A program made the translations under genes and the position numbers. The notes below the pieces were generated by a model. It was not told the DNA's origin, did no database searches, and saw only the letters and a program-made list of their open reading frames with translations. 64,000 nucleotides of DNA, from contig JBFWNU010000004.1 of NCBI GenBank assembly GCA_050250895.1, positions 353,362 through 417,361 of the forward strand, read 5' to 3'. Source of the stretch: Vulcanimicrobiota bacterium (GTDB lineage Bacteria > Vulcanimicrobiota > Xenobia > Xenobiales > JADMJV01). The stretch's first letter is position 1. Each line of letters starts with the position of its first letter. Positions 2,887 to 63,922 of this stretch are shown here, piece after piece.

Positions 2887-2903
2887 TTGCCATAGAGGGC
2901 TAG

Positions 2904-6070: not shown

Positions 6071-6073
6071 GGC

Positions 6074-14635: not shown

Positions 14636-15381
14636 AGCAGGCTGATACCGCCGTCCACCACCAGCGTCTGGCCCTGAATCAGGTCGGCCAGGGGGCTCGA
14701 CAGAAACAGGACACTGTCGGCCACATCGTCACAGGTCAGCTTCCGTCCGGCCGTGAGCAGGTGCTGGTCGACTGTTTCGAAGAGAGCCTCGGGCAAGGCT
14801 TTAGTCGATTGGGTTCGCACCAGCCCGGCCAGCACGACATTGAAATTGATCTGCGGAAACTCCAGAGCCAGGTGACGCGTCAGGCTCTCCAAAGCAGCTT
14901 TCGAAGCCCCGATCATGCCATAGTTCTCGATGGCTTTGCGAGCTCCGTGGCTCGACAGGCTCACCACCTTGGGTCGTCCCGAACCGGCTTGCATCCAGGG
15001 CAAGGCGGCCTGCACCAGACTCACCAGGGCCATGGCGTTGACGTTCATGGTGGTCTTGAACTGCTCCGGAGTGATCGAGCGCAGCGAGTGAAAACCGCCC
15101 CGGGCCACATTGCTCACCAGGATGTCCAGTCGGCCGAATCGTTGACCCACAAAGTCGAGCATGGCCTCAATGTCCTCGGCTTCGCCGATGTCGGCTTTGA
15201 CCACCACCGCGTCTCGGCCCAATTGCTGCACCTCTTCGGCCACCTGCTCGGCGGCCCTGGGCGAGGCCAGATAGTTGATGACCACGTCGGCCCCGGCCCG
15301 AGCCAGCTTGAGGGCGCAGGCCCTCCCGATGCCGCGCGAGGCTCCCGTGACCAGCGCCACCTTTCCGTCCAATTCGATCAT
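14632..15381 (-). CDS. Short-chain dehydrogenase/reductase (FabG-like)
   Basis: 249 aa; Rossmann motif VTGASRGIG near N-terminus; 4-bp overlap with PKS stop. Confidence 0.9.
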   Translation of the reverse strand: MIELDGKVALVTGASRGIGRACALKLARAGADVVINYLASPRAAEQVAEEVQQLGRDAVVVKADIGEAEDIEAMLDFVGQRFGRLDILVSNVARGGFHSLRSITPEQFKTTMNVNAMALVSLVQAALPWMQAGSGRPKVVSLSSHGARKAIENYGMIGASKAALESLTRHLALEFPQINFNVVLAGLVRTQSTKALPEALFETVDQHLLTAGRKLTCDDVADSVLFLSSPLADLIQGQTLVVDGGISLL

Positions 15382-23458: not shown

Positions 23459-23532
23459 TGATGCTTACCAGTTCTTGGCGTCGCGCCCGACTAGCCCGGT
23501 GTCGACCGGCATCGCCCAGCGCCGGGATGACG

Positions 23533-23590
23533 CAAGTCTAAGACAGTATACGAGATCCTCCGAGATTTCAAGTCTTTGGCCAAGTCTTCA
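23533..23590. promoter_or_regulatory. Three direct copies of CAAGTCT (plus two CGAGAT) in the region upstream of the thioester reductase-PKS-SDR operon
   Basis: Copies at ~23533, ~23569 and ~23581 in the 130-bp gap between the hydroxylase gene end and the reductase start codon (23458, minus strand). Confidence 0.3.
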
Positions 23591-49073: not shown

Positions 49074-50843
49074 ATGGATTTATTGGGCTTGGTAGAGCAA
49101 GCGGCCGATGGAGACGTGCTGCAGCTCGAGGGTGTCTATTCTTTGGCCGAGCCGCTGGTCTTGACGCGGGCAGTGAGCCTGGTGGGCCAGGCGGCCACCA
49201 TCGTGTCCGAGAGTCCTGACGTGGTGGTGCGGCTGGTGGGTCCCGGCCCTTTCAGTTTTCATGACATCCGTTTCGAATATCGCGGCCAAGAGCCGGCCCG
49301 GGTGGTCTGGCTCGAATCGGGTCGAGCCGACTTCGAGCGCTGTCGCTTCAGCGGCGGCCATTGGAATGACGAGCGTGGCTATGGCTGCGGTCTGCACCTG
49401 GGCGGCCAGAGCCAGGCCAGAGTGCGCCAATGCCAGTTCTTTGAAAACGATGTGGGGGTGCTGGTCGACCACCAGGCTCGGCCTTTACTCGAGGGTTGCC
49501 GGTTCACCGATAATCGTCTCGACGGTTTGCGTTTTCGTGGCTATTCGGGCGGTCGGGCGGTGCAGAACGAATGTCGAGGCAACGGCTGGTCGGGTATTTC
49601 GGTGGCCGGCGAGGCGACCCCCGAGCTGGTCAGCAACTTCTGCTCCGAGAACGGGAGCAGCGGTATCCTCTATCGCGAGCGAGGCAGCGGCATCGGTTCG
49701 TCCAACGAGTGTTCGCACAACGCCCACCACGGCATCAGCTTGAGCGAATACTGCCGCCCCTTGCTCAAAGCCAACCAGTGCGAAGAGAACCAGCTCTGCG
49801 GCATCGACCTGGGGGATCAGTCGCGCGGCGTGTTGCAATCGAATCTTTGTTGCGGCAACGGCGTGCACGGCATGCAGGTGCGCGATGAGGCCGATCCCGT
49901 CCTGGAAGACAACGAGTGCATGGAGAACGCCAGCTCGGGGCTGGCCATTTTCGGAGCCTCGCGAGCCGTGTGCCGGCGCAACGTGTTGACCCAGAACGCC
50001 TGCTACGGCCTGCAAGTGAGCCAGGACGCCTCGCCCGTGCTCGTCGAGAACCACGCCGTGGGTAATCGTCTGTCGGGGTTCGGCTTCTTTGGCCAGGCGG
50101 GCGGCCTGGGGGCCGCCAACGAGTGCAGCGAAAACCACGGCTACGGGGTGCAACTGTCGGGCACCGCAGCCCCCATCCTGGGCGATCAGCTCTGCACTCA
50201 AAACCAGCGCGGGGGCCTCCTGGCAGCCGAAGAGAGCCGTCCCCTCGTGCGGGGCGGCCAGTTCAGCAAGAACGAAAAGCACGGCCTGGTGGTCAACGAC
50301 CGCTCCCGCCCCCTGTTGCACGGAGCCAAAGCCGCCAGCAATGCCGAAGACGGCGTGGTCTTCGTGGGCCGAGCCGGGGGCGAGGCGCTGGCGGTCGAGG
50401 CCAGCGAGAACGGCCGCCACGGAATGTCCATCGGCCCCAAGACCTCACCCCTGCTCGAAGGCTGCAACTGCAACCAGAACCAGGCAGCCGATACCAGCAA
50501 CCAATCGGGCAAGGCCCGCACAGCCTCGCGGGGCGGCGAACACGAACCACTGCCCGAGGGCTTCGAGGTGGCCATCGAAAGCGGCGAATCGCTGCGTCTG
50601 CCGTTCGAACCCAAGGGAGTGGAAAAGTTGATTCTCGAGGCTCTACTAAAGCACGGTCGCTTGAGCGAGGCATCCCTTGCCAAGGTGGCCCGCACCCGCC
50701 GCATCGGGGGAGCCATGGAGAACTTGCTCGAGCGCCTCAATCAGGCCGGGCTGCGCTATATTCGGCGCGACGGCGAGGGGCCCGAGGGCAACGTCTACGC
50801 GCTCAGCCGCGACACCAACCAATCAGGGAGACAAGCATGCTAG
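49074..50843 (+). CDS. Cytoplasmic right-handed parallel beta-helix repeat protein with C-terminal helical domain
   Basis: 589 aa; no signal peptide; more than 12 tandem ~22-residue repeats with a recurring N.C..N...G pattern (NECRGNGWSGISV, NFCSENGSSGIL, NECSHNAHHGISL, NQCEENQLCGIDL, NLCCGNGVHGMQV, NECMENASSGLAI ...); last ~100 residues non-repetitive and helical; start could be TTG ~49083. Confidence 0.7.
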   Translation: MDLLGLVEQAADGDVLQLEGVYSLAEPLVLTRAVSLVGQAATIVSESPDVVVRLVGPGPFSFHDIRFEYRGQEPARVVWLESGRADFERCRFSGGHWNDERGYGCGLHLGGQSQARVRQCQFFENDVGVLVDHQARPLLEGCRFTDNRLDGLRFRGYSGGRAVQNECRGNGWSGISVAGEATPELVSNFCSENGSSGILYRERGSGIGSSNECSHNAHHGISLSEYCRPLLKANQCEENQLCGIDLGDQSRGVLQSNLCCGNGVHGMQVRDEADPVLEDNECMENASSGLAIFGASRAVCRRNVLTQNACYGLQVSQDASPVLVENHAVGNRLSGFGFFGQAGGLGAANECSENHGYGVQLSGTAAPILGDQLCTQNQRGGLLAAEESRPLVRGGQFSKNEKHGLVVNDRSRPLLHGAKAASNAEDGVVFVGRAGGEALAVEASENGRHGMSIGPKTSPLLEGCNCNQNQAADTSNQSGKARTASRGGEHEPLPEGFEVAIESGESLRLPFEPKGVEKLILEALLKHGRLSEASLAKVARTRRIGGAMENLLERLNQAGLRYIRRDGEGPEGNVYALSRDTNQSGRQAC

Positions 50844-52141
50844 CCAGTTTAAGCCGCGACACGGCCACTTCGATCATCAACGCGCTGCGTTCGGGAACCG
50901 TCCCTTTTGACGGGCTCGAGCACTATGCGGTGGGCCTCGAGCGCCAGATGGAGGTGCTGCGCGAGCAGCGCGAGTACGTGGCCGGTGGTCACTCGGCCTA
51001 TAAGTGCATTCGGGGCGCTTACGGGTCGGGCAAGACCTTTCTCTCGAGCCTGGCCGCGGCCGAAGCTGCCGACGCCAAGTTTCTGACCAGTAAAGTGGTC
51101 ATCTCGGCCGCCGATACGCCGCTCCATAAGCTCAAAGAAGTCTATCGCCGCTTCTGCCAGAACCTTTCTCTGGCCGACCGCCGAGGGGGCGCCCTGCAGA
51201 CCCTGGTCGACCGCTGGCTCTATCGCCTCGAGGACCAGGTCATCGAGGTCGATGGAGTGGCTGAGGACGACCCCGACTTCGCCGAGGTGGTGGCCCGCAA
51301 GGTCGACATGAGCCTGGTGCGCATCGGAGAACGGGCGGGCCGCCTGGCCGTCACCCTCAAAGCCTATCACAAAGCCAAGTACGACAGTCGCTTCTCGGAC
51401 GCACGGGGCTTGCTCGATTGGGTCTCGGGCGAACCCAAGGTGGGGGCCGACGTCAAGCGCCTGGCCTCGGTGACCGGCCAGATCGACAACACCGACGCCC
51501 TGGTCTTTCTGCGCGGTTGGCTGGAACTGGCGGAGGCGGCCGGCTACGCCGGGGTGTTGCTGGTGCTCGACGAAGTCGAGACCATCCTGCGCCTGCGCCG
51601 GCCCGAGCGGCTCAAATCGCTCGAAGTGTTGCGCCAGTTGATCGACGCCGTCGAGAATCAAGAACTGCCGGGGTTGCACCTGCTGATCACCGGCACCCCC
51701 GACTTCTTCGAAAGTTCCCAGGGGGTCCCGTCGCTGGTGCCCCTGCACGAGCGCATCCGCCAGACCCACCGCGACGGCGAGCCCGAGAACTTTCGCCAAC
51801 CCCAGATCACGTTGCCCACCCTCGACGCCGAGCGTCTGCGCCAGGTGGCCACGCGGGTGCGGGCCATCTATCCGGCCGAACATGGCGAGCGGTTGAGCAA
51901 GCGAGTACCCGACAGCTATGTGTTGCAACTGGTGGACCAGATGACGGCCGGCTTCGGTGGTCGCATCGAGGTGTTGCCGCGCTTGTTCCTGCGCGAATTC
52001 GTGCACATCCTCGACCTGGTCGACCAGCACTCAGACTACGATCCGGCTCAAGCCTATCGCTTTGATGTGGCCGGACTGAGCGAACTCAGGCCCGAAGAGG
52101 AAGAGGCCATTCAAGCGGCCGGGCGCGAGGTTCTCATCTAG
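50837..52141 (+). CDS. P-loop NTPase (AAA-like ATP-binding protein; possibly BrxC/BrxD-type DUF2791 fold)
   Basis: Frame 50123..52141 trimmed to ATG 50837, preceded by GGGAGA and overlapping the upstream stop as ATGCTAG; Walker A GAYGSGKTFL, Walker B LLVLDEVE; C-terminal helical region. Confidence 0.8.
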   Translation: MLASLSRDTATSIINALRSGTVPFDGLEHYAVGLERQMEVLREQREYVAGGHSAYKCIRGAYGSGKTFLSSLAAAEAADAKFLTSKVVISAADTPLHKLKEVYRRFCQNLSLADRRGGALQTLVDRWLYRLEDQVIEVDGVAEDDPDFAEVVARKVDMSLVRIGERAGRLAVTLKAYHKAKYDSRFSDARGLLDWVSGEPKVGADVKRLASVTGQIDNTDALVFLRGWLELAEAAGYAGVLLVLDEVETILRLRRPERLKSLEVLRQLIDAVENQELPGLHLLITGTPDFFESSQGVPSLVPLHERIRQTHRDGEPENFRQPQITLPTLDAERLRQVATRVRAIYPAEHGERLSKRVPDSYVLQLVDQMTAGFGGRIEVLPRLFLREFVHILDLVDQHSDYDPAQAYRFDVAGLSELRPEEEEAIQAAGREVLI

Positions 52142-52153: not shown

Positions 52154-54103
52154 TTAGAACTGCTGCCAGAGCAGCACGCGGCTCTTCTCGGCCGGGTCGA
52201 AGACCTGATTGAGGTCGAGATTGATCAAGTAGAACTCTTTGCCGTTCTTGATGGTGGGCTTGAGCAGCGAGTCGAGATAGGCTTCGACCTTCATGTCATC
52301 GACCTTGACGGCCGGCTGAAAAGTGTGAGTCGAACTCGAAGAGGTCTTGGTGGTCTTGGACGAGAGCCCGAACCAGGAACTCTCCTTCTTCTTGTATTCG
52401 GTGGTTACCGTGTATTCCACCGGCGCGCCGGCCGAGGCCTGGGCCACTGCGGCCCAGTTGGCAACTTCGGCCAGCACCGTCTCGCGAGAAACGTTATTGC
52501 CGCGATAATAGTTGACATAGACCGTCTTGTCTTCAATAGTGAAGGGGTACTTGTCGAGCTGGAAATTGGCCGCATCTTCAACTGGGATGGCCGAGGCATC
52601 GGTATACATGTTGCCTCGCGAGAAAGCGCCTTGAATAGCCACCGAGAAGCGCTCTTCACCGGTCTCGGTGGCGGGCATTCGATGGCCTGACACCGCCAGC
52701 CCGGCCACCACCGAGTCGGCCAGCTTGGCCTTGTCGGCGGCGCTGATGATGTTGGTGGTGGTGGTGTCTTTATCGCCCCAGCCGAGGAACCGGTCGTCGT
52801 CTTCATCCTCTTTGCTGGTGGTATCGGGCAGCGTGCTCTTGGTGACATCGGGCACGCCGACCGCAAAACTCACCGAGATGGGCGTCTTGACCAGGGTGAC
52901 GTTGTCGAGGCGCAACTTTCCTTTCCCTTTGGGGCCGTTGGCCACGGCCGCTCCCACCACCGTGATGTCCTTGGCCCACAGGTCGCCTTCGGAATAGACC
53001 AGTCCGTTAAAGAAGTTGCCACTCTTGCTCAGGCCGTGAAGGGTGATATCGCCTTTGGAGACCAGCGCCACCACATCGGTGGCCGAAATCTCGGCGCCCT
53101 CTTTGATCGACACTTCACCGAGCGAGAAAATCGCGCCGTTGCCGTAGACCTTGCCGGTCACGTCGACATCGCCCCGCACATACAGCAGGCCACCGTTGAG
53201 GTGAATGTTGCCATTGACCCTGAGGTCGCCCAGGGCCTCGGTGAAGAAGTCGACCTCTAAATTGGTAAGGGTCGGCGACCCATCGAGGATCTGATCGTTG
53301 CCTTTGATCTCGTCAAGCTTGGCAAAGATGTTGTCCACATCCAGGTCGGGCATGGTCTGCTCACCCGAGTGCTCGCGCACCTCGCCGGCCACTTTGACCG
53401 AGGTATCGAGGTCGATGCTTCCTACTGCCATGACGTCGCCCATCACGGTCGAGGTTGGCCCGATAGAAACGGCCTTGTCCCCGGCAAAGTTACTGGCCAC
53501 ATGGGCCATATCCAAATCCGCCGGGTCGAGGGTGGTGGCTTTGCCGGTGTCGGCAAAAGCCTGGGTAGAAGCCACTCCTGCAACCAGCAGCCCGCCCGAC
53601 GAGGTCAGGGGTCCGGTCGAAGCCAGAGCGTTGGGATAAGGAGGGATGTAGTAAATGGCTTCCATCTGGTAGCGGGCGTTCTTGCACTTGCCCACGGCCA
53701 CCAGGTGCACGGCGCTGTCGGGAATCTGCCGGCCGTTGGCCCCCTCGACCGAGGTCGGCTCTTCGAAATTATTGGTCGAGAAGGGCAACTTCAGATCGGA
53801 GGCCTGCTTCTTGCTGAAGGTCAGCCAACCATCGGCCTCGTCAGGAGCGAAGCTGGATGGGATGTGAATGGTCTGGTCATCAGCCCGGGCCTTGCCGAAC
53901 GTCTGGTCCATCCAGATGCGTCCCAGCGCCGTGGCCACCGCCGACTCGGCCAGATTGCGGGCTTCGCGCTGGTCCACCACCGTGTTGCTGAAATTGAGGT
54001 GGAAGAAGGAAACGGCCACCACGGTAAACAGCGCCAGGGTAATGATGGTAACCAGCAGTAGAACAGAACCGATTGTGAGACCGCGTGCTCCCCTGCGAAC
54101 CAT
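52154..54103 (-). CDS. Large surface/secreted beta-helical protein with pseudopilin-like N-terminal hydrophobic segment
   Basis: 649 aa; N-terminus MVRRGARGLTIGSVLLLVTIITLALFTVVAVSF resembling minor-pseudopilin leaders; central Gly/Asn/Val-rich repeats (NGNIHLNGGLLYVRGDVDVTGKVYGNGAIFSLGEV ...). Confidence 0.65.
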   Translation of the reverse strand: MVRRGARGLTIGSVLLLVTIITLALFTVVAVSFFHLNFSNTVVDQREARNLAESAVATALGRIWMDQTFGKARADDQTIHIPSSFAPDEADGWLTFSKKQASDLKLPFSTNNFEEPTSVEGANGRQIPDSAVHLVAVGKCKNARYQMEAIYYIPPYPNALASTGPLTSSGGLLVAGVASTQAFADTGKATTLDPADLDMAHVASNFAGDKAVSIGPTSTVMGDVMAVGSIDLDTSVKVAGEVREHSGEQTMPDLDVDNIFAKLDEIKGNDQILDGSPTLTNLEVDFFTEALGDLRVNGNIHLNGGLLYVRGDVDVTGKVYGNGAIFSLGEVSIKEGAEISATDVVALVSKGDITLHGLSKSGNFFNGLVYSEGDLWAKDITVVGAAVANGPKGKGKLRLDNVTLVKTPISVSFAVGVPDVTKSTLPDTTSKEDEDDDRFLGWGDKDTTTTNIISAADKAKLADSVVAGLAVSGHRMPATETGEERFSVAIQGAFSRGNMYTDASAIPVEDAANFQLDKYPFTIEDKTVYVNYYRGNNVSRETVLAEVANWAAVAQASAGAPVEYTVTTEYKKKESSWFGLSSKTTKTSSSSTHTFQPAVKVDDMKVEAYLDSLLKPTIKNGKEFYLINLDLNQVFDPAEKSRVLLWQQF

Positions 54104-54249: not shown

Positions 54250-55125
54250 ATGAATGCGGTCAGAACCCATCGCCCGACCGCCGGGCCCACTCTCCCGGCC
54301 GCGCGCCCGCGCCCGGCCGGGCCTGCGCTCAGCGGCACCGCTGACACAGGGCTCAAGGCGCAGCGCCTCTCTGAGCTGCGCGACCAGAAACCGACCACCC
54401 CGGCGGGCCAGAACCCCACTCTCGCCAGCCAGGCCGAAAGGGCTAGGGCAGGCCTGGGCCAAGCCTTCGAGCTAAAGAAGCCGGTCACGCTCAAGAATGG
54501 AGTCACCGTGGTCAAAAGCGCCGACCTCAGCGACGGCTCGGGCCTATATGACCTGAATGTGGGCGGCCACAAAGTGGGGGTCCGTTTCGACCAGGGAATC
54601 GACGCAGGCACAAAGCTGCCGCAATTGGCCGACTACCTCGAGCAGACACCCGAACACTTGCGCAAAGAGCTTGGTTTTATCAACTTTCAGAACGGGGCCA
54701 ATCCCAAGGACGCTGAAATCGCCAAGAAGTTTGGAGTCGAAGAGTTTCAGACCTGGGCTACCGCCGATGACCACGCCATCAACGTCTACCACGGCGGAAA
54801 ATTCTTCGGTCAACGCGAGTTCGACCACGAGCTGGGCCATCTGGTGGGCGCCCGTCGCAGCGGCCACGACGAACTGGTCGACTGGGTCAATCTGCGCCAC
54901 GACCCCCACAACACACCGGTTGGTTGGGGGGCCCGCAAAGCCTACGACCATAAAGAGGTTTCTGACTACGGAAAGCTGTCGCTCGGCGAGGACTTCGCCG
55001 AGGGCTATGCCGACTACATGCAGGCTCGCCGTCAGGGCCCCGAAGCCTGGCAGGCGTTCGGACAGAAGTTTCCCAGCCGGACGGCCCTGCTCGAGCGCAT
55101 CGTGACCAACGGAGACACCCGCTGA
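54250..55125 (+). CDS. Hypothetical protein with HExxH motif (possible metallopeptidase/effector)
   Basis: 291 aa; low-complexity Pro/Ala/Arg-rich N-terminus, then globular region with FDHELGHLV; start uncertain. Confidence 0.45.
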   Translation: MNAVRTHRPTAGPTLPAARPRPAGPALSGTADTGLKAQRLSELRDQKPTTPAGQNPTLASQAERARAGLGQAFELKKPVTLKNGVTVVKSADLSDGSGLYDLNVGGHKVGVRFDQGIDAGTKLPQLADYLEQTPEHLRKELGFINFQNGANPKDAEIAKKFGVEEFQTWATADDHAINVYHGGKFFGQREFDHELGHLVGARRSGHDELVDWVNLRHDPHNTPVGWGARKAYDHKEVSDYGKLSLGEDFAEGYADYMQARRQGPEAWQAFGQKFPSRTALLERIVTNGDTR

Positions 55126-55167: not shown

Positions 55168-56130
55168 GTGGCGATGGCCGACTTCATTGCCCTGGGGACC
55201 GAGAAGTGGGACCGGGCCGCCGCTCGGGCCTATCGACTCGAGCGCTTTCTTTATCGCAACCAGGACCTCGAACTCAGGCTGCTCAGGTCGGGGCGGGGCC
55301 AGCCCTGGGTGAGCAATCCCTACGGCTATGTCGGGGGCCTGGACCGAGCCCGGCCTGAACTCACCCAGGAGCTGCCTCAGGTGTTGGCCAGGCTGCTGCA
55401 GGAAAGCCAAGCCCCCTATGCGCTGTTGCGCACTCTCGAGCCGTTAGGAGGCGAGGTGGCCGAGAAGTTTCAGGTCGACACCCGCTTTCACACCTTCTTT
55501 CTTGACCTCGAGGGTGGCTCTGAGGTGGTCTGGAACACGCGTCTGGCCTCGAAGGTGCGCCGCCAAACGCGCCGCGGCCTCCGTCAGGGGGTAGTGGCCC
55601 GCCTCGGCCAGCTCGACCTTTTCCCAGACTTCTTGCGGGTACTGAGCCAGTGCTGGAGAGACCTGGGTACTCCCTTTCACACCCCCGCGTTCTTCAAAGC
55701 GCTGCTGGCCAACTATGGCCCGGCCGATTCGGCCATCCTGAACCTCTACCAGGGCGAAGAGCCAGTGGCCACCGCCCTGCTGGTCATCGCGGGCGATACG
55801 CTGTTTTTTCCCTACACCGGCACCCTCAAAGAGGCTCAGCGAAACGGAGTCAACAACGTGCTCTACTGGCGCATCATCGAGTTTGGCTGCGCGCGGGGCT
55901 GCCGCTGGTGGGATCTGGGGCGCAGCCGCAAAGACTCGAGCCACGCCATCTATAAGCGACCATGGGGGGTCCAGGAGCGGCCGCTCTACTACAACTATCT
56001 GATGGCCCCGGGCGCCGCCATCCAAAACCTGGAAAGCCGCCTGGTGAAGCTAGCCGTCGAGACCTGGAAGCATTTGCCGGTAGGCCTGCATCGGGCCCTC
56101 GGTCCCCGGCTGATCCGGAGGGTGTTATGA
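55168..56130 (+). CDS. FemAB-family / BioF2-like GNAT-fold acyltransferase
   Basis: 320 aa; architecture and C-terminal segments (ALLVIAGDTLFFPYTG ... NNVLYWRIIEFGCARGCRWWDLGRS) typical of FemAB-like proteins found in polysaccharide loci. Confidence 0.6.
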   Translation: MAMADFIALGTEKWDRAAARAYRLERFLYRNQDLELRLLRSGRGQPWVSNPYGYVGGLDRARPELTQELPQVLARLLQESQAPYALLRTLEPLGGEVAEKFQVDTRFHTFFLDLEGGSEVVWNTRLASKVRRQTRRGLRQGVVARLGQLDLFPDFLRVLSQCWRDLGTPFHTPAFFKALLANYGPADSAILNLYQGEEPVATALLVIAGDTLFFPYTGTLKEAQRNGVNNVLYWRIIEFGCARGCRWWDLGRSRKDSSHAIYKRPWGVQERPLYYNYLMAPGAAIQNLESRLVKLAVETWKHLPVGLHRALGPRLIRRVL

Positions 56131-56717
56131 GCTTCACCCAGGCCGATTCGACCACCGATCGGGCCATCCTCGAGCAGGTAGTCCAACTGCACCTGGCCAC
56201 CCTGGGCGACCTCTTTCTCAGCCAGCTGGGTTCTTATTTCGTCGACCGTTACTACGACGAACTGCGCCACGACGGCGGCTCGCTGCTGGGCCTTTGGATG
56301 GACGGTCCGCAAGTGGTGGGTCTGGCCGCTGGCGGCCTGGCTCCCGGTCAGGTCTTTTCGCGGCTGGGTTGGCGTCGTCTGGAGTTTAGCCTGCAGATGC
56401 TACGTGCGCTGGCCAGAAGGCCTCGCCTGCTCGGCCAATTGCTGGCCTCGCTGGGCGGCGTAGAAGACTTACCCTCGAGCCAGGTCGAACTGACCTATTT
56501 CGCGGTGGCTCCGGCCCGCCAGGGCCAGGGTCTCGGTAAACAGCTGCTCGAGGCTTATGCTCAATGGTGGACCGCGCGAGGCATGACGGGGCTTTCTCTG
56601 AGCGTTGAAGAAGAGAACCAGGGCGCCTTGCGATTCTACTCTCGTCAGGGCTTCCAAAAACTCGGGGCTCAAAAGCACGGAGCCTATCAGCGTTATCTAC
56701 TGAGAAAACCGTTGTGA
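56127..56717 (+). CDS. GNAT-family N-acetyltransferase
   Basis: Frame 55962..56717 trimmed to ATG 56127 (ATGA overlap with upstream stop); acetyl-CoA-binding motif QGQGLGKQLL and RFYSRQGF. Confidence 0.75.
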   Translation: MSFTQADSTTDRAILEQVVQLHLATLGDLFLSQLGSYFVDRYYDELRHDGGSLLGLWMDGPQVVGLAAGGLAPGQVFSRLGWRRLEFSLQMLRALARRPRLLGQLLASLGGVEDLPSSQVELTYFAVAPARQGQGLGKQLLEAYAQWWTARGMTGLSLSVEEENQGALRFYSRQGFQKLGAQKHGAYQRYLLRKPL

Positions 56718-57526
56718 GATTTCACGCCGACGACCTGGGCGCCAGCCCCGCCATCACTCGGGCCGTGCTCGACTGTTACACGGCCGGGGCGATTTCGAGC
56801 TGCAGCGTGCTGATCAATCGCCAACCCTTCGAGCAGCTGGTCGAGGCTTTGCAGCCCCACCCCGGCCTTGGCCTCAGGCTGCACCTCAATCTGAGCGAAG
56901 GCTATGCTCTGACGGAAGCTCCCCGGCTGTGCCGGCCCGACGGCAGCTTTCGTCACTCCTTCCAGAGTCTCGCCCTGGACTATCTCTTCTCGCCTCAAAG
57001 GGCTGAACTCCGGCGCCAGTTGCAGGCTGAACTCGAGGCCCAGTGCCACCGCTACGGCCAGCTGCTGGCAGCCCTGGGCCGCAGCGCCGAAGTGGGCCTC
57101 GACAGTCACGAGCACTTCCACTTTCTGCCCTTTGTCTTTGAAGCCGTGTCCCAACTGGCTGGGCAGTTTGCGGTGGTGTCGCTGCGCCTGCCTCCCAGGA
57201 CCGTCTTCCTCAGTCACTTCACTCCGGCCTCGCCGGTGCCGCTGCTCAAAGCGCTGGTGCTGACCGGTCTCGGCAGGTGGCTGCACTCGCGCTGGCCGTA
57301 TCAGGCACCTCGGTTGCTGGTCACGGGCACCGTCGATCCCTTCCGACTCGATATCGACCAGGCCGGCGAGGTGATTTTTCACCCCGGGCAACTGGCCCCC
57401 GACGAATCGGGACCTCCTCAGCCGCGATTGGCCAGGGCCTATCGGGCCGAGCATCGCAAGCTCGAGCACGAAGCTCTGCTTCGCTTCACAGCTGGTCGCG
57501 CAGCACGTAACGGGGCCGGGCTTTGA
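56714..57526 (+). CDS. YdjC/ChbG/HpnK-family carbohydrate deacetylase
   Basis: 270 aa; N-terminal FHADDLGAS motif typical of the YdjC family; 4-bp overlap with GNAT stop. Confidence 0.7.
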   Translation: MRFHADDLGASPAITRAVLDCYTAGAISSCSVLINRQPFEQLVEALQPHPGLGLRLHLNLSEGYALTEAPRLCRPDGSFRHSFQSLALDYLFSPQRAELRRQLQAELEAQCHRYGQLLAALGRSAEVGLDSHEHFHFLPFVFEAVSQLAGQFAVVSLRLPPRTVFLSHFTPASPVPLLKALVLTGLGRWLHSRWPYQAPRLLVTGTVDPFRLDIDQAGEVIFHPGQLAPDESGPPQPRLARAYRAEHRKLEHEALLRFTAGRAARNGAGL

Positions 57527-58403
57527 CCTCTTCGTGGATCCGGCCCACGTAGAGACCGAGAATGGACAGGCCCAGAAAGTTGAGCCCGCCCGACGAGAGA
57601 ATCAGAAAGTTGATGGTCGATAGACCGTTGACCGCCTGTCCGGTGAACTTGAGATAAAGGGTCCAGCCGCCCACCAGCGAGGCCGGAAAGAGCAGCAGCA
57701 ATCCGGTCACCAGCAACATGGTGAGGGGAATCGACGAGAAAGCCGTGATGTTATTGATGGCATAGCGCATCAGCCCGAAGAACGACCACCGCGAGTCGCG
57801 ACCGGGGATGTCGCGCACCATGAACTGCACCCGAGCCCGGTCGAACCCGAGCCAGTTGGTCACGCCTCGAAAAAACATATTGCGCTCGGGTAGCCTCAAC
57901 CAGGCATCGCGGGCTCGGGCGCTGAGCAGCTTGAAGTCGGTCTGCCCCTCGAGATCGGTGCCACACATCAGGTTGAACACCTTGTAGAAGAGCCTGGCTC
58001 GGGTGCGGCTGAAGTAGCCCTCGTTAGGAGAGCGCATCTTGATGCCCTCGACGAGATCGCAGGCTTGCTCTTGCCAGGTCCTGACCATCTCGGGAATGAG
58101 CTCGGGGGGATGCTGCAAATCGCCGTCGATCGTCACGAAGGCCTCGCCTTCGGCGAACTCGAGGCCGGCACACAAAGCCGCCTCCTTGCCAAAGTTGCGA
58201 CTCAGTCGCAAGGCCCGCAAAGGGTATTTCTCTTGGAGCTCGGTTAGAGCCGCCCAGGTCCCATCGGTTGATCCGTCATCCACCACCAGACACTGGTAAT
58301 CGAGGTCTTTGAGGTGGATGTCGAGCTGCTCGAGCAGGGCCGGCAGCCCACTGGCCTCGTTATAGATCGGGACAATCACGCACAGAGTCGGCACAGAGCT
58401 CAT
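57486..58403 (-). CDS. GT2-family polyprenyl-phosphate glycosyltransferase (ArnC/DPM1-like)
   Basis: 305 aa; CVIVPIYNE, VVDDGSTDGT, DGDLQHPPE motifs, two C-terminal TM helices. Confidence 0.9.
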   Translation of the reverse strand: MSSVPTLCVIVPIYNEASGLPALLEQLDIHLKDLDYQCLVVDDGSTDGTWAALTELQEKYPLRALRLSRNFGKEAALCAGLEFAEGEAFVTIDGDLQHPPELIPEMVRTWQEQACDLVEGIKMRSPNEGYFSRTRARLFYKVFNLMCGTDLEGQTDFKLLSARARDAWLRLPERNMFFRGVTNWLGFDRARVQFMVRDIPGRDSRWSFFGLMRYAINNITAFSSIPLTMLLVTGLLLLFPASLVGGWTLYLKFTGQAVNGLSTINFLILSSGGLNFLGLSILGLYVGRIHEEVKARPRYVLRDQL

Positions 58404-58493
58404 CGTTCAAGGTTCGAATTCGCCCACATAGCCCCTGCGCTCGAGCGCTGCTTTGTCGGCAGGAACTGCTTGCAGCGACAGGAACCGGTTGCG

Positions 58494-60191
58494 ATGACCA
58501 GGGTTCGACCGCTACCGGTGATTCTTTGCGCCTTCATGCTGGTCACGTTCCCTCTGCGTCTGCGCGAACACGATACCTTTCAAGTCGAGTTCGATCAGGC
58601 CAACATCCAGCAATATCTGTGGCTGATGGCCCACGGCCAACGACCCTATGGCACGCTGGCCGAGAGTCACGCCTTCGGCGATCACTTCGACCCCGTCCTC
58701 TATCTCTTCTGCCTGCCCTTCCGCTGGCTCCCCAGCTTCGAACTCTATCTGCTGATGCACCTGGGCCTCATGCTGGTCGGTGGAGTGGCCGTCTTTCGTC
58801 TGGCCCATCGCAAGCTCGAGTCAGAATGGCTGGCGGCCGCCTGCACCATGGCCTACATGTTCAATCCCCTTACGTTGGGCGTGAGCCTCTATCCCCTACC
58901 CCATGTGGCCGTCGGGCTGGCAGCCTTCCTGTGGGCTCTGGCCCTGGACTGCGACCCTCGTGCCCTGGCGGTAGGCCTGCTGGTGGCGGCGGCCAGTGTC
59001 GAAATGGCTCTACTTCCATTCCTGGGTCTGGCCCTTTACCTCCTCAGCCAGAAAGAGTACAAGAAAGGACTGGTGTTGGCCGCGGCCAGCCTGTTCTTGA
59101 TGGTCCTGCTCACCCAGGTGGTCACCCCCACCTTCGGGGCCGTCGGGCAGCACGCCGGGCTGGACCGCCAATTCGGTCGCTTCGACTATCTCAAGCAAGA
59201 TGTGGCCGGGCTGCCGGGCCGGCTGGCCACTCATGCCGCCGCCTTTTGGAGCCTGGATCGAACCTTGCTGGCCCAGATGTTCTTGGCCACGGCCGGGCTT
59301 TTCGTGTTGGCCCTGCCGGCCTGCCTGGCCTTCTTGCCAGGGCTGATCATCAATCTGGCTGCCGACTTCTGGGGGATGCACAGCGTCTTTTTGCACTATC
59401 AGGCCATCGTGGTAGGCGGGCTCTACTTCGCGGCCATCTGCGGCCTCGAGCGTTTGGGCGACCAGCACCGGTCCAGGGCGGCGGTGTTCCTGCTGGTAGG
59501 CACAGCCGGGTCGCTTTTGTTGGGCAACCCGCTGGCCGGCCGGGTCGGGCAATCACCAGAACGCGTCGCTCAACTCAGCACGGCCCTGGACCGGCTGCCT
59601 CCCCAGGCCTCGGTCCTGGCGCCGGCCTCCACCGTCTCGCACCTGGCCTTTCGCCCCCAGGTCTACAGCCTGCCCTCGCTGACCGAGACGCCATCCTGGC
59701 AGAGTTCGGCCGCCCACCAGGCACAGGTCGACTGGATCCTGCTCGATCTCGACGGGCTGGGCTTTCCCTGGCGCAAAGACATGCTCAACCTCAAGGCCCA
59801 ACAGATTTTGCAAGACCCCGACTACGGTTTTCACTCAGCCATCGGGCGCCTGGTCCTGCTCGAACGGGGCAACACCACCCCTTTACCCGAAGGCCTGGTC
59901 AAGGTGATCCCGACCTATTCGAGTCTGGAACTGGTGAACGCTTACCTGGCAGGGGGCTTCCCCGAACAGGCTCAGGCCGAACTCGACCGCCTGCTGGGCC
60001 AGGCCGAGTCGCCGGTCTTGTGCTACTGGCAGGGGCGCATCTTCCAGCAGCAGCGGGCGGTCGAGAAATCGAACCAGTGGTTCGAACGGGCCCTCGAACA
60101 GGGTCCTTCCGACGACCTGCGCCAGGAGTTGCTGGCCCAGCTCGAGACCAACCGGCGGGGCTACGTTCCCCAGATCGCGCCGCGATACTAA
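58494..60191 (+). CDS. Polytopic membrane protein (DUF2079-like, possible GT-C-type glycosyltransferase)
   Basis: Frame 58314..60191 trimmed to ATG 58494 (MTRVRPLPVILCAFMLVTF); many hydrophobic helices then soluble C-terminal domain; preferred over the overlapping 58526..60835 frame, which is Arg/Pro/Gly-rich low-complexity. Confidence 0.6.
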   Translation: MTRVRPLPVILCAFMLVTFPLRLREHDTFQVEFDQANIQQYLWLMAHGQRPYGTLAESHAFGDHFDPVLYLFCLPFRWLPSFELYLLMHLGLMLVGGVAVFRLAHRKLESEWLAAACTMAYMFNPLTLGVSLYPLPHVAVGLAAFLWALALDCDPRALAVGLLVAAASVEMALLPFLGLALYLLSQKEYKKGLVLAAASLFLMVLLTQVVTPTFGAVGQHAGLDRQFGRFDYLKQDVAGLPGRLATHAAAFWSLDRTLLAQMFLATAGLFVLALPACLAFLPGLIINLAADFWGMHSVFLHYQAIVVGGLYFAAICGLERLGDQHRSRAAVFLLVGTAGSLLLGNPLAGRVGQSPERVAQLSTALDRLPPQASVLAPASTVSHLAFRPQVYSLPSLTETPSWQSSAAHQAQVDWILLDLDGLGFPWRKDMLNLKAQQILQDPDYGFHSAIGRLVLLERGNTTPLPEGLVKVIPTYSSLELVNAYLAGGFPEQAQAELDRLLGQAESPVLCYWQGRIFQQQRAVEKSNQWFERALEQGPSDDLRQELLAQLETNRRGYVPQIAPRY

Positions 60192-61807
60192 CGGGCGGGA
60201 AAGCGATAGACCTGGTAGACCCAGATCTGGGCAATCTTGTCGGCCCCGGCGGTCAGGCGCTCGAGGAGTCTGGCTTCTTCCTTCTGATACAGGTCGGGGT
60301 CCATGCTGGGGTATTCGGCCCGAATGCTCGAAGCGGTCGAGAGAAAGAGCACTCCACAGCGGTCGGCCGCTCGGATCTGTCGCTCAGCTTTTTCGAAGGC
60401 CTCTTCCGGATAATAGAGGGGAACCAGGCTCTCGAAATCGGTGGGGTTGTGGGCTCCCACCAACCAGACCAGCTGGGGAAGCTCGGGAAAGGCGAAGAGG
60501 TTCTGGCCGGCAAACTGCTGGGTCAAAACGTTGCTCAACTGCTGGGTGGCCGCGGCCACTTGAGGATCGTTGGCATACAGGGTGCCGCGCGGAAAGCGAA
60601 TAGGATAGCGGTATGGGCCCCAGCCGATGACATTGTCGAGGCCGTGCGTCAAGAACACGGTCACCACACACGCGGCCACTGTCCTGGCCAGGCGGGGATA
60701 GGCCGATTGAAGCCAATAGAGCAGGTAGGCCAGCGCGGGATACCAGGCCACCGTCAAAAAATTAAAGTGGTAACGAGTGGCCCGGGCCATGGCAAAATAG
60801 GTCGAGACCCACAACAGGAGCAGCAACCCCAGTAGCAAGCTCCGGCCGGCATCGTCGAGAGCCTGGGAGTGACGCAGCCTGGTCGCGTAGACCACGGTGA
60901 GCACGATCAGGACCGGGAAAAAGCCGGTATACTTCACTAGATCCACTCCGGCAAAGGCGGCGGCCCGCACGAACCAGACCAGCCAGCTAACGATGGACGG
61001 ATTGCCGAACTGGGAGAGCCCCGAAGAAAGCGTCTGGAAATGTCCGAGGGCCAGCCCCCAGTCGAACGGATAGCCCTGGACGGCTTTGTATTCGAGCACG
61101 TTGAACAGGATCGCCTGAGACCAGAAGTCGCCAAAGACGCCCCGCCAGAGCATCCAGCCGACAAAGAGGGCTCCCGGGATAGCCGCGCCGGCCACCAGAT
61201 AGGCCAAACGCTCGAGCCGCGCCTCCTGGCTGACCACCACCATGAGCGCCAGGGCCAGGCAGACAGCCACTCCCCGCGGTTGCAGATAGAGCACGGTCAG
61301 CCCGGCGAGAAGACCTGCCCCCAGTTGGTGGCGGGGCTGGCTGGCGTAAGCCGAACAGAGGAGGGCGAGCAGAGCGGGGATCGAGGCATCCCAGTGATAG
61401 ACAGCCATGGGGAACATCTGGCCCCCCACACAGGCGAACATCAGCGGCGGGATGGCCGACCAGAGCCGAGGCATGAGGCAGCGACTGACCAGCCAGACGG
61501 CCACGCAAAGCAGGCACAGCGACAGCATGAAGTAGAGCCGGGCCACCCAGATCTGCTCGCCCAGGGCGAGAAAGAAGATTTTCAGACCGAACGGCGTCCC
61601 CGGCATGAAGCGCATGAAGAAGTCGCGATAGGGAAGTTGCCCCTGGTTGAGGCGCGAGGCCCACTCGAGCATGTTACCCTCGTCTTGCAGCACCAGGTAG
61701 GCCGAACGAGAGGGCCAGATGGCCGCCAGTTGCAGCCAGAAGACGAGGGCCGAGCCCTTGACCAATTCGGAGGCCGACGGCGTCTGGTAGGAGCGCGATT
61801 CGGTCAT
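60188..61807 (-). CDS. GT-C-fold membrane glycosyltransferase-like protein (ArnT/PMT-like)
   Basis: 539 aa; polytopic; first predicted loop carries QDEGNMLEWASRL, resembling the DE..Y.E loop motif of ArnT/PMT enzymes; 4-bp overlap with DUF2079-like gene end. Confidence 0.55.
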   Translation of the reverse strand: MTESRSYQTPSASELVKGSALVFWLQLAAIWPSRSAYLVLQDEGNMLEWASRLNQGQLPYRDFFMRFMPGTPFGLKIFFLALGEQIWVARLYFMLSLCLLCVAVWLVSRCLMPRLWSAIPPLMFACVGGQMFPMAVYHWDASIPALLALLCSAYASQPRHQLGAGLLAGLTVLYLQPRGVAVCLALALMVVVSQEARLERLAYLVAGAAIPGALFVGWMLWRGVFGDFWSQAILFNVLEYKAVQGYPFDWGLALGHFQTLSSGLSQFGNPSIVSWLVWFVRAAAFAGVDLVKYTGFFPVLIVLTVVYATRLRHSQALDDAGRSLLLGLLLLLWVSTYFAMARATRYHFNFLTVAWYPALAYLLYWLQSAYPRLARTVAACVVTVFLTHGLDNVIGWGPYRYPIRFPRGTLYANDPQVAAATQQLSNVLTQQFAGQNLFAFPELPQLVWLVGAHNPTDFESLVPLYYPEEAFEKAERQIRAADRCGVLFLSTASSIRAEYPSMDPDLYQKEEARLLERLTAGADKIAQIWVYQVYRFPAR

Positions 61808-61810
61808 GGA

Positions 61811-63469
61811 CTAGCGCGCCCCTGACGGGGGAGGAACGGGCCGCGTCCAGAGAGGAATCTCGGTCTCCTTGATGATCTCGATGGTGGGATAGGTGAAGTA
61901 CTCGACATCGACGGCCGTCAGGCTCACCAGCGGCTCCTGGCCCTGGTACGAGCCTTCGGGACGACGCACGAAGAAGTGATTGGGCGCCTGCAACCAGTTG
62001 AGCACTCGCAGCGGCCAGGAACGCTTGTAGCTGTAGCGATTATGGGTGTAGTAGACCAGAAACTCGGTAAAGCGACGGCTGGTCTCTTCGGAATAGCGGT
62101 CCTCGCCAAAGGCGGCCTTCACCTTGGGGAGCTGGGCGGGTTCGACCTGGTTGAGAAACCGGGCCACCACCGGCGAGTGGGTGGCTCCGTAGGTCTCGAC
62201 CAGCCTCGGTTCGGAGCGAAGAAAGAAAAAACGGCTCTGGACCATCTCGAGTTCGTAGAGAGAAAAGTCGGAGGGAGCCAGCTCATAGGTCTGACCACTG
62301 GCGCCGGTGCCGACGAGCCGAAATCGATTGACGAAGGGCGTGTCGTACCAGAAGAAGCTGGTGGGCAGCAAGAAGAAGATGCCCAGGCAGTACATCGCCA
62401 ACCACAGACCGCGGTGATAGCGGTTGAAGATGGGCCTCAGAAAGCGACCGCGGCCTCGCCAGAGAACGAAGATCAGGACCAGATCGAGCAACATCCAGGT
62501 CCAGAAGAAGATCCCGCTGGTCACCAGGATCAGCGCGTGCAGCCCGATGACGCCGACCAGGCCCAGTTGAGCGCTGCGACGTCCCCAGATCAGCAGGATA
62601 CCGCCCAACTCGAGCAGCAAGGCGCCGACCTGCATAGGCACGGCGAAGACCGACATCGACCGGGCTACGCTCTCGATCTCGGCCTGGTTCATCCAGGTGT
62701 GCATGCGGTAGATCCAGCCGGCCGGGAGCAGGTGGCTCATATCGTTGCCCAGCACCCAACGCAGGCCGCCCGCATAGAAGATCTTGCCGACTCCGGCGTT
62801 GAAATAGAAAAATCCCGTCAGGGCGATGGCCAAAAAGACGAAAAAGCGCCGGTTGAGCTTGAGGCAGTATTGCACCGGCAGATAGGCTGCGAACAGGATC
62901 ATCATATCCCAGGGCAGGCGCTTGTCGAGCAAAAACCAGAAGTAGCCAAAGACCGGAAAGCGAAACTGCAGACTGATGGTGGTGATGGTGGCGATAAAGG
63001 GATAGATGAACAGCGGGTGCCTCCACAGGGCCAGCCAGAGCACGATGAGGCAGAGGCGGTCGCCCAGGTGCTCTTGCCCGAAGAAATAGTTCATCTGATA
63101 GGCGCTAAAGATCCAGGTCAGAATGGCGGTGGTGGCCAGAACGATGATGCGAGCGTTGCCGCTGGGGTCGATAGCCTCCCAGCTCAGCTCGTCTTTGACG
63201 TGATACGAAATGATGACGAACAGGCCGGCCAGAGCCAGCACCAGGGGCCTTTTGAGTTGCTCCCACATGAGAAAGGGAGCGCGAAAAACCGCCTCATCAA
63301 GACCCAGTACGCTCTGGGACATGATCCAGACGAGATTGAATAGAAGGATGACCGCCACCATCGCGAGCAGGCCTTTGGAGCGGAGAAAACGGCTCACGGC
63401 CCTTCGATTCCGTGTCGCCAGGGGAAGAACCTCTCCTGGAACTCTGGCCACCACGAGCTGGTTATGCAT
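61811..63469 (-). CDS. Polytopic integral membrane protein with C-terminal soluble domain, unknown function
   Basis: 552 aa; hydrophobic N-terminal two-thirds; same general architecture as the 26513..27973 protein. Confidence 0.55.
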   Translation of the reverse strand: MHNQLVVARVPGEVLPLATRNRRAVSRFLRSKGLLAMVAVILLFNLVWIMSQSVLGLDEAVFRAPFLMWEQLKRPLVLALAGLFVIISYHVKDELSWEAIDPSGNARIIVLATTAILTWIFSAYQMNYFFGQEHLGDRLCLIVLWLALWRHPLFIYPFIATITTISLQFRFPVFGYFWFLLDKRLPWDMMILFAAYLPVQYCLKLNRRFFVFLAIALTGFFYFNAGVGKIFYAGGLRWVLGNDMSHLLPAGWIYRMHTWMNQAEIESVARSMSVFAVPMQVGALLLELGGILLIWGRRSAQLGLVGVIGLHALILVTSGIFFWTWMLLDLVLIFVLWRGRGRFLRPIFNRYHRGLWLAMYCLGIFFLLPTSFFWYDTPFVNRFRLVGTGASGQTYELAPSDFSLYELEMVQSRFFFLRSEPRLVETYGATHSPVVARFLNQVEPAQLPKVKAAFGEDRYSEETSRRFTEFLVYYTHNRYSYKRSWPLRVLNWLQAPNHFFVRRPEGSYQGQEPLVSLTAVDVEYFTYPTIEIIKETEIPLWTRPVPPPSGAR

Positions 63470-63922
63470 CAGGTGAGACTTTTGCTGAGCACGATCCTGG
63501 TGGCCCTGGTGGCGTGGTGGCTATGGCCCGTCCCCGAGCCCGATTGGGCTCACCTGAGCGACCAGCAGTGGCAGCAACGCTTGAGCGCCGAACAATACCA
63601 CATCCTTCGCGAGGGTGGCACCGAACCGCCCGGCACCGGCCTCTATGCCAAGCCGGGCCAGCCAGGCACGTTTCGCTGTGCCGGCTGCGGCCAGCCCCTG
63701 TTTGCCAGCCAGAAGCAGTACGACTCGGGCACCGGCTGGCCCAGCTTTACCCAGCCCCTCGAGGGGGCTGTCGACCACCACCAGGACAATACTTTCATGT
63801 TCGCCCAGGTCGAAGTGCGCTGCGGCCGCTGCCTGGGTCATCTGGGACACGTCTTTCCCGACGGTCCTAAGCCGACCGGAACGCGCTACTGCATCAATTC
63901 GCTGGCCCTCGAGCTAGAATAG
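63464..63922 (+). CDS. msrB: Peptide-methionine (R)-S-oxide reductase MsrB with N-terminal hydrophobic extension
   Basis: SelR signatures: CxxC pairs (CAGCGQPLF and RCGRCLGHLGHVF), GWPSF, RYCINS; N-terminal LLLSTILVALVAWWLW hydrophobic segment. Confidence 0.9.
   Translation: MHQVRLLLSTILVALVAWWLWPVPEPDWAHLSDQQWQQRLSAEQYHILREGGTEPPGTGLYAKPGQPGTFRCAGCGQPLFASQKQYDSGTGWPSFTQPLEGAVDHHQDNTFMFAQVEVRCGRCLGHLGHVFPDGPKPTGTRYCINSLALELE

Follow-up and report, generated by a model that had tools for sequence, protein, structure and literature searches.

A Putative Polyprenyl-Phosphate-Dependent Hexosamine Module with a Fem-Like/GNAT Pair in a Vulcanimicrobiota Bacterium

Introduction

The lipid-carrier-dependent hexosamine pathways Arn, Flm/NaxD, and Lgm set the envelope charge, the resistance to cationic peptides, and the innate immune recognition in pathogens. 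In a Vulcanimicrobiota bacterium, a contig stretch of 64,000 nucleotides (the window, meaning the whole stretch of DNA that was analysed) contains a region from position 55168 to 63469 which is wholly taken up by seven open reading frames (ORFs), designated G1 to G7. The initial annotation of this region had assigned all seven genes to one pathway for the modification of an envelope component with an N-acyl-edited amino sugar. This raised the question of which of these genes belong together, and what their products might add to the cell envelope. Five of the seven genes, namely, G6, G4, G3, G1, and G2, represent a conserved core, and by analogy to known systems there is about an even chance that they form one module by which a modified hexosamine, built on polyprenyl phosphate, is attached to an envelope acceptor. 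G5 and G7 lie beside them in this genome only, and a role in the pathway is not assigned to them.

For the phylum Vulcanimicrobiota/Eremiobacterota, a single cultured isolate was available as of 2022, and this only described isolate has a Gram-negative envelope with lipopolysaccharide (LPS) (PMC9758169). Genomes of WPS-2 were reported to encode LPS synthesis and BamA (PMC6664022).

A Conserved Core of Five Genes

The core was defined by gene order, since G6, G4, G3, G1, and G2 stay clustered in relatives from the Vulcanimicrobiota/Eremiobacterota at 44-62% identity. The related loci are designated L001 to L015 here. In L001, where the G6 homologue is 62% identical, G6-G1-G2-G3 are tightly packed on one strand, with 4-bp overlaps between G1 and G2 and between G2 and G3, and with a convergent gene for a GT2 glycosyltransferase overlapping the YdjC gene. 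In L002 (59% identity of G6), all five genes are present in a changed order, YdjC, GT2, G6, G1, G2, with G6-G1-G2 being contiguous. L004 (47%) contains G6 followed by the YdjC gene, with a Fem-like gene, 30% identical to G1, located 2.3 kb upstream. In L003 (identical to L006; 44%) and in L007 (51%), only the GT2 gene adjoins G6, and in L005 (48%) G6 was identified alone within the DNA available. Homologues of G1 cluster with those of G6 in L001 and L002 (59-62% identity) and those of G3 in L001, L002, and L004, while a G4 homologue adjoins the one of G6 in L001, L002, L003, and L007. A G2 homologue directly follows the G1 homologue in L001, L002, and L011. The initial annotation had considered that the module might be conserved only with unrelated neighbours; in these diverged relatives, the five genes were instead found clustered with each other. 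G5, G7, the gene for a methionine sulfoxide reductase (MsrB) next to G7, and the two genes upstream of G1 were not found in any of the loci L001 to L007. The synteny sample is small, with few G6 loci recovered: a search with the alignment of the G6-type enzymes revealed two loci among 185,579 species genomes and one in a metagenome scan, and a scan of genome contigs with G6 as a single protein found nothing.

In L004, the G6 homologue shares a 4-bp overlap with a preceding gene (7809-11593 for the pair) coding for a 731-aa protein with a spermine/spermidine-synthase-like domain, and the Fem-like gene and a methyltransferase gene are located upstream of the latter. This arrangement may point to another kind of amine decoration in that lineage.

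Genes similar to G1 have also been identified in other surroundings. In L011, an Eremiobacteraeota contig with 75% identity, a gene for a GT87-type glycosyltransferase of the GT-C fold precedes the homologues of G1 and G2. In L012/L013, from an unrelated metagenome-assembled genome (MAG), a G1 homologue with 38% identity shares a 4-bp overlap with a YdjC gene. This pair adjoins genes for GtrA, a DegT aminotransferase, a GT2 with 37% identity to G4, and an 891-aa membrane protein, which gave a weak YfhO match over about 60 C-terminal residues (30.9 bits, cutoff 28.5) and is a candidate GT-C. Since the cassette carries the pair with a different candidate GT-C, the YdjC/Fem-like pair appears to be exchangeable between GT-C systems. 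The same cassette (369-10957) additionally codes for a weakly Wzy_C-like membrane protein, a Laminin_G_3 protein, and a methyltransferase. More distant G1 relatives were found in exosortase-type exopolysaccharide (EPS) loci, in one case (L015) together with a CE4 deacetylase, and with no GT-C in the flanks read. In Pseudomonas fluorescens, the Pap cluster contains the FemX-like PapO beside the YdjC-like PapP (PMC7716237). Judged by these sequences, Fem-like proteins are repeatedly encoded together with a deacetylase.

All seven ORFs of the window are genes rather than chance ORFs, since G1 to G5 have Pfam matches and since homologues and confident AlphaFold models exist for G6 and G7. G1 and G2 overlap by the sequence ATGA (56127-56130), and G2 and G3 by GTGA (56714-56717). 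G3, on the plus strand, and G4, on the minus strand, are convergent with a 41-bp overlap (57486-57526); G5 and G6 are also convergent and overlap by 4 bp. G4 and G5 are divergent with a shared span of 90 bp, and G7 ends 3 nt before the start codon of G6, both being encoded on the minus strand. The seven ORFs, their coordinates, both 4-bp overlaps of the plus-strand genes, and the 41-bp convergent overlap had been described in the same way in the initial annotation. A scan for promoters and terminators in the region from 54 to 64 kb of the window gave a signal no higher than expected from shuffled sequence.

The Proteins Encoded by the Core Genes

The names FemAB-like, GNAT, YdjC, GT2, and DUF2079, given to the gene products by the initial annotation, were all upheld by Pfam. 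G6, called GT-C-like there, has no match in Pfam, even at E<=10, or in NCBIfam, and a PDB sequence search gave no direct match. An identical sequence is deposited at NCBI as a hypothetical protein in a MAG labelled as a Vulcanimicrobiota bacterium. Nine close homologues with 44-62% identity were identified, in addition to a 26%-identical relative carrying PMT_2, and PMT_2 (PF13231) is matched by seven of the 12 family members at E<=1, with 2.8e-10 as the best value. The AlphaFold (AF2) model of G6 has a pLDDT of 87.6 and a pTM of 0.89. When it was compared to the PDB using Foldseek, the top nine matches were all GT-C enzymes with a probability of 1.00. The best match was ArnT (5F15; E 2e-7, TM score 0.55), followed by DPY19, AftA, STT3, ALG9, PglB, and AftB. 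In the model, helix 1 comprises residues 12-35. The residues D42-E43-G44, located between the predicted helices 1 and 2, are invariant in 12 of 12 aligned members, so that conserved acidic residues are present in the first loop after transmembrane (TM) helix 1, as in the GT-C superfamily; R342 and H347 are likewise invariant in the family alignment. The protein contains the segment ...VLQDEGNMLEWASRL..., and residues 41-53 correspond to the loop QDEGNMLEWASRL quoted in the initial annotation. Because the top fold matches are all GT-C enzymes and the family matches PMT_2, G6 is predicted to be a GT-C enzyme from a divergent branch with few members, similar to ArnT/PMT_2. Members of this subfamily came exclusively from Vulcanimicrobiota/Eremiobacterota, from unclassified MAGs, and from metagenome contigs.

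For G4, Pfam identified Glycos_transf_2 (3.5e-27). Compared to the PDB, G4 aligns over its full length (residues 6-303) with the polyprenyl-phosphate glucosyltransferase GtrB (5EKP; 2.7e-51) and also over the full length with ArnC (1.4e-35), and its N-terminal 105 residues or so align with dolichol-phosphate-mannose synthase (DPMS; 1.4e-23). A DGD motif is present at residue 93, and TM-like segments are located at residues 219-249 and 264-284. G4 hence combines the features of GtrB/ArnC/DPMS-type enzymes: the DxD motif of the GT-A fold, a C-terminal TM hairpin, and full-length homology. In NCBIfam, the scores stayed below the cutoffs both for PgfS (1.9e-59; 201 bits, cutoff 500) and for ArnC (6.8e-36; 124 bits, cutoff 529). 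Based on the full-length alignment with GtrB and ArnC, the DGD motif, and the two C-terminal hydrophobic segments, G4 is predicted to be a GtrB/ArnC-type polyprenyl-phosphate sugar synthase. This agrees with the proposal of the initial annotation that the GT2 is an ArnC-type lipid-carrier enzyme.

G3 belongs to the YdjC family (PF04794; 5.8e-27, 95.6 bits, cutoff 29.7). In the alignment with the chitooligosaccharide deacetylase 7vi8 (PDB, 1.4e-5), the ADD, H, and HxH positions are retained, with HADDLG, LHLN, and SHEHFH in G3 representing the conserved Asp/His positions of the metal site. The best NCBIfam match was HpnK (TIGR03473; 1.4e-22), which covers the N-terminal half only and reaches 80 bits against a cutoff of 232.6.

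G1 was identified by Pfam as Acetyltransf_6 (1.3e-16), with a weak FemAB match (4e-5) at 23 bits, slightly under the cutoff of 24. Its NCBIfam match was TIGR03019, pepcterm_femAB (3.7e-47; 161 bits, cutoff 260). A PDB sequence search with G1 alone gave no direct match. With a profile of the G1 family, the aminoacyl-tRNA-dependent peptide synthase 9wqy (7.3e-15), the lipid II:glycine glycyltransferase FemX 6snr (1.1e-10), and the FemX protein from Weissella (1.5e-8) were found, and the characterised PDB entries matched by this profile are aminoacyl-tRNA-dependent transferases only. On the basis of these profile matches, G1 is assigned to the superfamily of aminoacyl-tRNA-dependent Fem transferases. 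G1 does not qualify as a TIGR03019 PEP-CTERM equivalog by either score or exosortase context: a gene for an exosortase was not found beside G1 or its homologues in the window, L001, L002, L004, or L011-L013.

G2 is a generic GNAT protein (Acetyltransf_1; 4e-15), and its NCBIfam matches to RimI, WecD, and MshD (1.6e-6 for MshD) are all below the thresholds. TM segments or hydrophobic stretches were found in none of the three proteins G1, G2, and G3.

Comparison to Known Systems

The NaxD and Lgm pathways, which are the closest precedents, were not included in the initial annotation. NaxD is an enzyme of the YdjC superfamily that deacetylates undecaprenyl phosphate-linked N-acetylgalactosamine (GalNAc) before galactosamine is joined to lipid A (PMC11279074). 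At the level of families and folds, G4, G3, and G6 fit the roles of the GT2, the YdjC deacetylase, and the ArnT-like GT-C in the FlmF2/NaxD/FlmK system of Francisella, with NaxD being present also in Acinetobacter baumannii. As in the Flm/Nax and Lgm systems, the three enzymes are encoded together in the window, and this is kept in L001 and L002. Unlike in Francisella, the module additionally contains the Fem-like and GNAT proteins, which are encoded between the GT-C and the deacetylase in L001, and G6 forms a separate, very small subfamily. By analogy, from the shared superfamily and the GT2/GT-C context, G3 would be a NaxD/LgmC-type deacetylase for a lipid-linked N-acetylhexosamine (HexNAc). 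In Bordetella, lgmA, lgmB, and lgmC are required for the presence of glucosamine (GlcN) on the lipid A phosphates (PMC4993483). The logic of three enzymes in LgmA/LgmB/LgmC(/LgmD) is shared with the module; however, a gene for an LgmD-like or other flippase is not present at the locus, and the Fem-like and GNAT proteins are again additional.

In the ArnC/ArnD/ArnT system, N-deacylation also proceeds on the lipid carrier, G4 is similar to ArnC over the full length, and ArnT is the best fold match of G6. Different from the Arn system, genes of the ArnA/ArnB type for sugar-nucleotide synthesis are not part of the module, and ArnD belongs to the CE4 polysaccharide-deacetylase family and not to the YdjC family. 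In mycobacteria, PpgS (Rv3631) is a GT2 enzyme forming polyprenyl-phosphate-GalNAc, and the GT-C Rv3779 leads to galactosamine on arabinogalactan (PMC3485146). The acceptor therefore need not be lipid A, since the sugar of this system is transferred to a cell-wall polysaccharide. In contrast to PpgS/Rv3779, where a Fem-like or GNAT partner is not involved and the deacetylase is undefined, the module includes both proteins, and G4 matches the PpgS model at the N-terminus only (7.4e-10).

Enzymes of the FemX type act on a free amine of the peptidoglycan precursor, some of them on lipid II. While the G1-family profile matches FemX and related peptide synthases, and G1 itself TIGR03019, the partners of G1 are a YdjC protein, a polyprenyl-phosphate GT2, and a GT-C instead of the products of peptidoglycan or exosortase genes. 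The same order of reactions as proposed below is found in the synthesis of mycothiol by MshA, MshB, MshC, and MshD, in which N-acetylglucosamine (GlcNAc) is converted via GlcN and Cys-GlcN to AcCys-GlcN, that is, from a HexNAc conjugate by a deacetylase, the attachment of an amino acid to the sugar amine, and acetylation by a GNAT protein. This is an analogy only, since the product of the mycothiol pathway is soluble, its enzymes belong to other families (GT4, MshB/LmbE, and a ligase similar to cysteinyl-tRNA synthetase), and a GT-C is not involved. In summary of these comparisons, the modification of hexosamines on a lipid carrier, the deacetylation on the carrier, and the transfer by a GT-C are known, and the conserved Fem-like/GNAT pair and the GT-C subfamily are new.

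Proposed Pathway and Alternative Explanations

From the family and fold assignments, the clustering of the genes, and the retention of the catalytic motifs, a pathway of six steps can be proposed, in which the substrates of all steps, the order of steps 2 to 4, the use of aminoacyl-tRNA, the sugar, the acyl group, the flippase, and the acceptor are inferred. In step 1, G4 would load undecaprenyl phosphate with an N-acetylhexosamine at the cytoplasmic face, using a common UDP-HexNAc; a gene for nucleotide-sugar synthesis is not encoded at the locus. G3 would then strip the N-acetyl group from the lipid-linked sugar (step 2), comparable to NaxD acting on undecaprenyl-phosphate-GalNAc, and G1 would add an amino acid to the freed C2 amine (step 3). 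The latter is proposed because every characterised relative of G1 is an aminoacyl-tRNA-dependent transferase acting on a free amine. In step 4, the amine of the added amino acid would be acetylated by G2. After being flipped by a flippase encoded elsewhere (step 5), the sugar would be moved by G6 onto a periplasmic acceptor (step 6), for which lipid A or the LPS core, a polysaccharide, and a protein are candidates in this diderm phylum. The initial annotation, which suggested N-acyl editing, had not separated the Fem-like step from the deacetylation; G1 probably aminoacylates its substrate instead of merely editing acyl groups.

Several observations weigh against this pathway. The TIGR03019 cutoff is not reached by G1, and no NCBIfam equivalog cutoff by G3 or G4, so that specificities are not transferable to them. 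A flippase gene, like gtrA or arnE/F, was not found at the locus in the window. The module is incomplete in L003 and L007, with G6 and the GT2, and in L005, with G6 alone in the DNA available, and the editing enzymes may thus be optional or act elsewhere. To our knowledge, the use of aminoacyl-tRNA by Fem-like proteins of the PEP-CTERM type has never been demonstrated. Instead of the lipid-linked sugar, the substrate of G1 and G2 could also be a soluble precursor or the finished polymer.

Among the alternatives, a plain pathway of the NaxD/Lgm type was considered, by which a cationic hexosamine with a free amine would be placed on lipid A or the LPS core, with the Fem-like and GNAT proteins merely co-located and acting on another substrate, like an exopolysaccharide or a peptidoglycan precursor. 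The trio of GT2, YdjC, and GT-C by itself matches the systems of Francisella and Bordetella, G6 is structurally closest to ArnT, the phylum has LPS, and no GT-C was seen in the flanks read of the exosortase-type EPS loci that carry distant G1 relatives. However, G1 and G2 are flanked by the GT-C and deacetylase genes in the L001 run, G6-G1-G2 are contiguous in L002, and in L012/L013 the YdjC and Fem-like genes overlap by 4 bp beside genes for GtrA, a GT2, and the weakly YfhO-like protein. The co-location is therefore kept across rearrangements and with different GT-C partners, and this explanation is considered unlikely. Quite improbable is also that the YdjC, Fem-like, and GNAT proteins act before or after the lipid-carrier stage, on a soluble conjugate or on the transferred glycan, with the GT2 and the GT-C adding a simple sugar branch as in the O-antigen glucosylation of the Gtr type or the GlcNAc decoration of the GacI/GacL type. 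Such a division would fit that GtrB and PgfS resemble G4 more closely than ArnC does, that G6 and the GT2 occur in L003 and L007 without the other three genes, and that G1 to G3 have no TM segments. Yet the lack of any hydrophobic stretch in G1 to G3 makes an action on a periplasmic polymer after transfer unlikely, soluble YdjC substrates, for example chitobiose, are accompanied by phosphotransferase system (PTS) or catabolic genes, none of which is present here, and NaxD provides a lipid-linked-sugar precedent for a YdjC protein encoded beside a GT2 and a GT-C.

The model of the initial annotation in its full form, with all seven genes in one pathway modifying the product of the EPS locus upstream in the window, is given little chance. 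The genes are contiguous, G7 and G6 are 3 nt apart on one strand, and G5 diverges from G4 across the shared 90 bp; DUF2079, the family of G5, is presumably placed among the GT-C-like families in Pfam. Against the model, neither G5 nor G7 was found in any of the seven related loci, G7 is predicted not to be a GT-C, and a G7 homologue is located among unrelated genes. A distance of 42 kb separates the EPS locus from the module, and genes for a polyketide synthase (PKS), a methyltransferase, and other proteins are located in between; orthologues of its genes were not found near the module elsewhere, and the similarity is limited to generic GT4 enzymes. The link to this locus was rejected, since support from synteny was not obtained. 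Hardly credible, finally, is a modification of hopanoid head groups, in which G3, like HpnK, would deacetylate a GlcNAc-bacteriohopanetetrol produced by the GT2. HpnK is the best NCBIfam match of G3 (1.4e-22), but at 80 bits this match stays far under the cutoff of 232 and is restricted to the N-terminal half. In addition, G4 is of the GtrB/ArnC type over its full length and not HpnI-like, genes for HpnJ, HpnH, or a cyclase were not found at the locus, and a GT-C partner would have no role. The HpnK assignment was rejected on both score and context.

For the decoration of an envelope acceptor by the five-gene module, it is conceivable, but rather doubtful, that the product is a hexosamine with an N-acetyl-aminoacyl group on the C2 amine. 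Such a compound would belong to an as yet undescribed class of envelope decorations; a Fem-type aminoacyl-tRNA-dependent transferase would act in its assembly on undecaprenyl phosphate, and a GT-C would export it. If G1 and G2 re-acylate the freed amine, the resulting envelope modification would be chemically of a new class. The module would also provide the first functional handle on the Fem-like proteins paired with deacetylases in many polysaccharide loci, as in PEP-CTERM-type loci and the Pap cluster of Pseudomonas, and would extend the substrates of aminoacyl-tRNA-dependent transferases beyond the stem peptide of peptidoglycan to a new class, the polyprenyl-phosphate sugars. At present, the value of the analysis lies in a testable unit of five genes and in the correction of the seven-gene reading.

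G5, G7, and Other Features of the Window

G5 was identified by Pfam as DUF2079 (PF09852; 1.7e-33, 116.9 bits, cutoff 28.2), with a weak C-terminal TPR_16 match (3.9e-5) at 24.5 bits, below the cutoff of 32.7 bits. DUF2079 is a family which is presumably grouped with the GT-C families in Pfam, and a literature search on DUF2079/PF09852 gave nothing useful. G5 could not be demonstrated to be a GT-C: the PDB sequence search was empty, and hhalign of G5 with the G6 family gave a nonsignificant probability of 1%, with loop 1 as the aligned stretch.

For G7, a match was identified neither in Pfam or NCBIfam nor directly in a PDB sequence search. Its relatives comprise 938 representatives at 50%-identity clustering, each of about 540 aa, and none of the 57 sampled has a credible Pfam match. 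The AlphaFold model of G7 is very confident (pLDDT 91.6); a Foldseek search against the PDB found no solved structure at E<0.001, with weak likeness only to vitamin-K gamma-carboxylase (HTTM) and to NACHO/DoxX-like bundles. By its model, G7 is not a GT-C enzyme; a fold match to GT-C was not obtained. The residues W97, N127, R138, P152, Q168, K229, W238, E287, W325, and W374 are invariant in the family, which may represent an undescribed family of membrane enzymes without a Pfam model. For the one G7 homologue with a retrievable context, the neighbouring genes code for HupE, an ornithine cyclodeaminase, and an acyl-CoA dehydrogenase. Next to G7, the gene for MsrB (SelR, E 3.7e-44; 63464-63922, plus strand) was identified, the start of which overlaps the longest G7 ORF by 6 nt but does not reach the position (63361) at which the assembly lets G7 begin. 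MsrB is probably membrane-anchored or exported, as deduced from its N-terminal hydrophobic segment.

The coordinates of all features are listed in Table 1.

Table 1: Genes of the module region and other features of the window.
Feature	Position	Strand	Predicted product	Placement
G1	55168-56130	+	Fem-like (Acetyltransf_6) transferase, cytoplasmic; 320 aa (318 aa in NCBI call)	Core member
G2	56127-56717	+	GNAT N-acetyltransferase, cytoplasmic	Core member in closest relatives
G3	56714-57526	+	YdjC-family deacetylase, cytoplasmic	Core member
G4	57486-58403	-	GtrB/ArnC/PgfS-type GT2 polyprenyl-phosphate glycosyltransferase, two C-terminal TM helices	Core member
G5	58314-60191 (ORF); likely start ATG 58494 (565 aa)	+	DUF2079 polytopic membrane protein	Neighbour outside the conserved core
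G6	60188-61807	-	GT-C fold glycosyltransferase, divergent PMT_2/ArnT-like subfamily	Core member, putative terminal transferase
G7	61811-63469 (assembly call: M37 start, 63361)	-	Polytopic membrane protein with C-terminal alpha/beta domain	Non-core, non-GT-C
First locus	370-12656		Wza/Wzx/Wzy-type EPS cluster: Wza-like Poly_export+SLBB, Wzy_C, WecG/TagA glycosyltransferase, two GT4s, GH10, GNVR protein, sulfotransferase, Wzx-type flippase	
PKS	14632-24676	-	2236-aa single-module PKS (KS-AT-ACP-KR-DH); flanks: SDR, NAD_binding_4 ("male sterility") reductase, Asp/Asn beta-hydroxylase-family protein (PF05118)	
Beta-helix/ATPase pair	49074-52141	+	589-aa right-handed beta-helix (NosD-like) protein, directly followed by BrxC/BrxD-family ATPase (PF10923, E 8.5e-119)	
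649-aa protein	52154-54103	-	No family match; single N-terminal hydrophobic segment	
291-aa protein	54250-55125	+	No family match; HELGH (HExxH-like) motif	

The sulfotransferase encoded in the first locus, which is the EPS locus mentioned above, suggests a sulfated polysaccharide. Between this locus and the module, the PKS region may be involved in the formation of a long-chain lipid or alcohol; PF05118, found in its flanks, is a family which presumably includes the lipid A hydroxylase LpxO. The beta-helix/ATPase pair, which is unrelated to the glycosylation module and may be a defence-type or other nucleoside triphosphatase pair, is kept in L011. In the same locus, the 649-aa and 291-aa proteins have homologues with 86% and 78% identity, and a gene for a 210-aa protein and the one for the GT87-type GT-C are inserted between these homologues and the homologue of G1.

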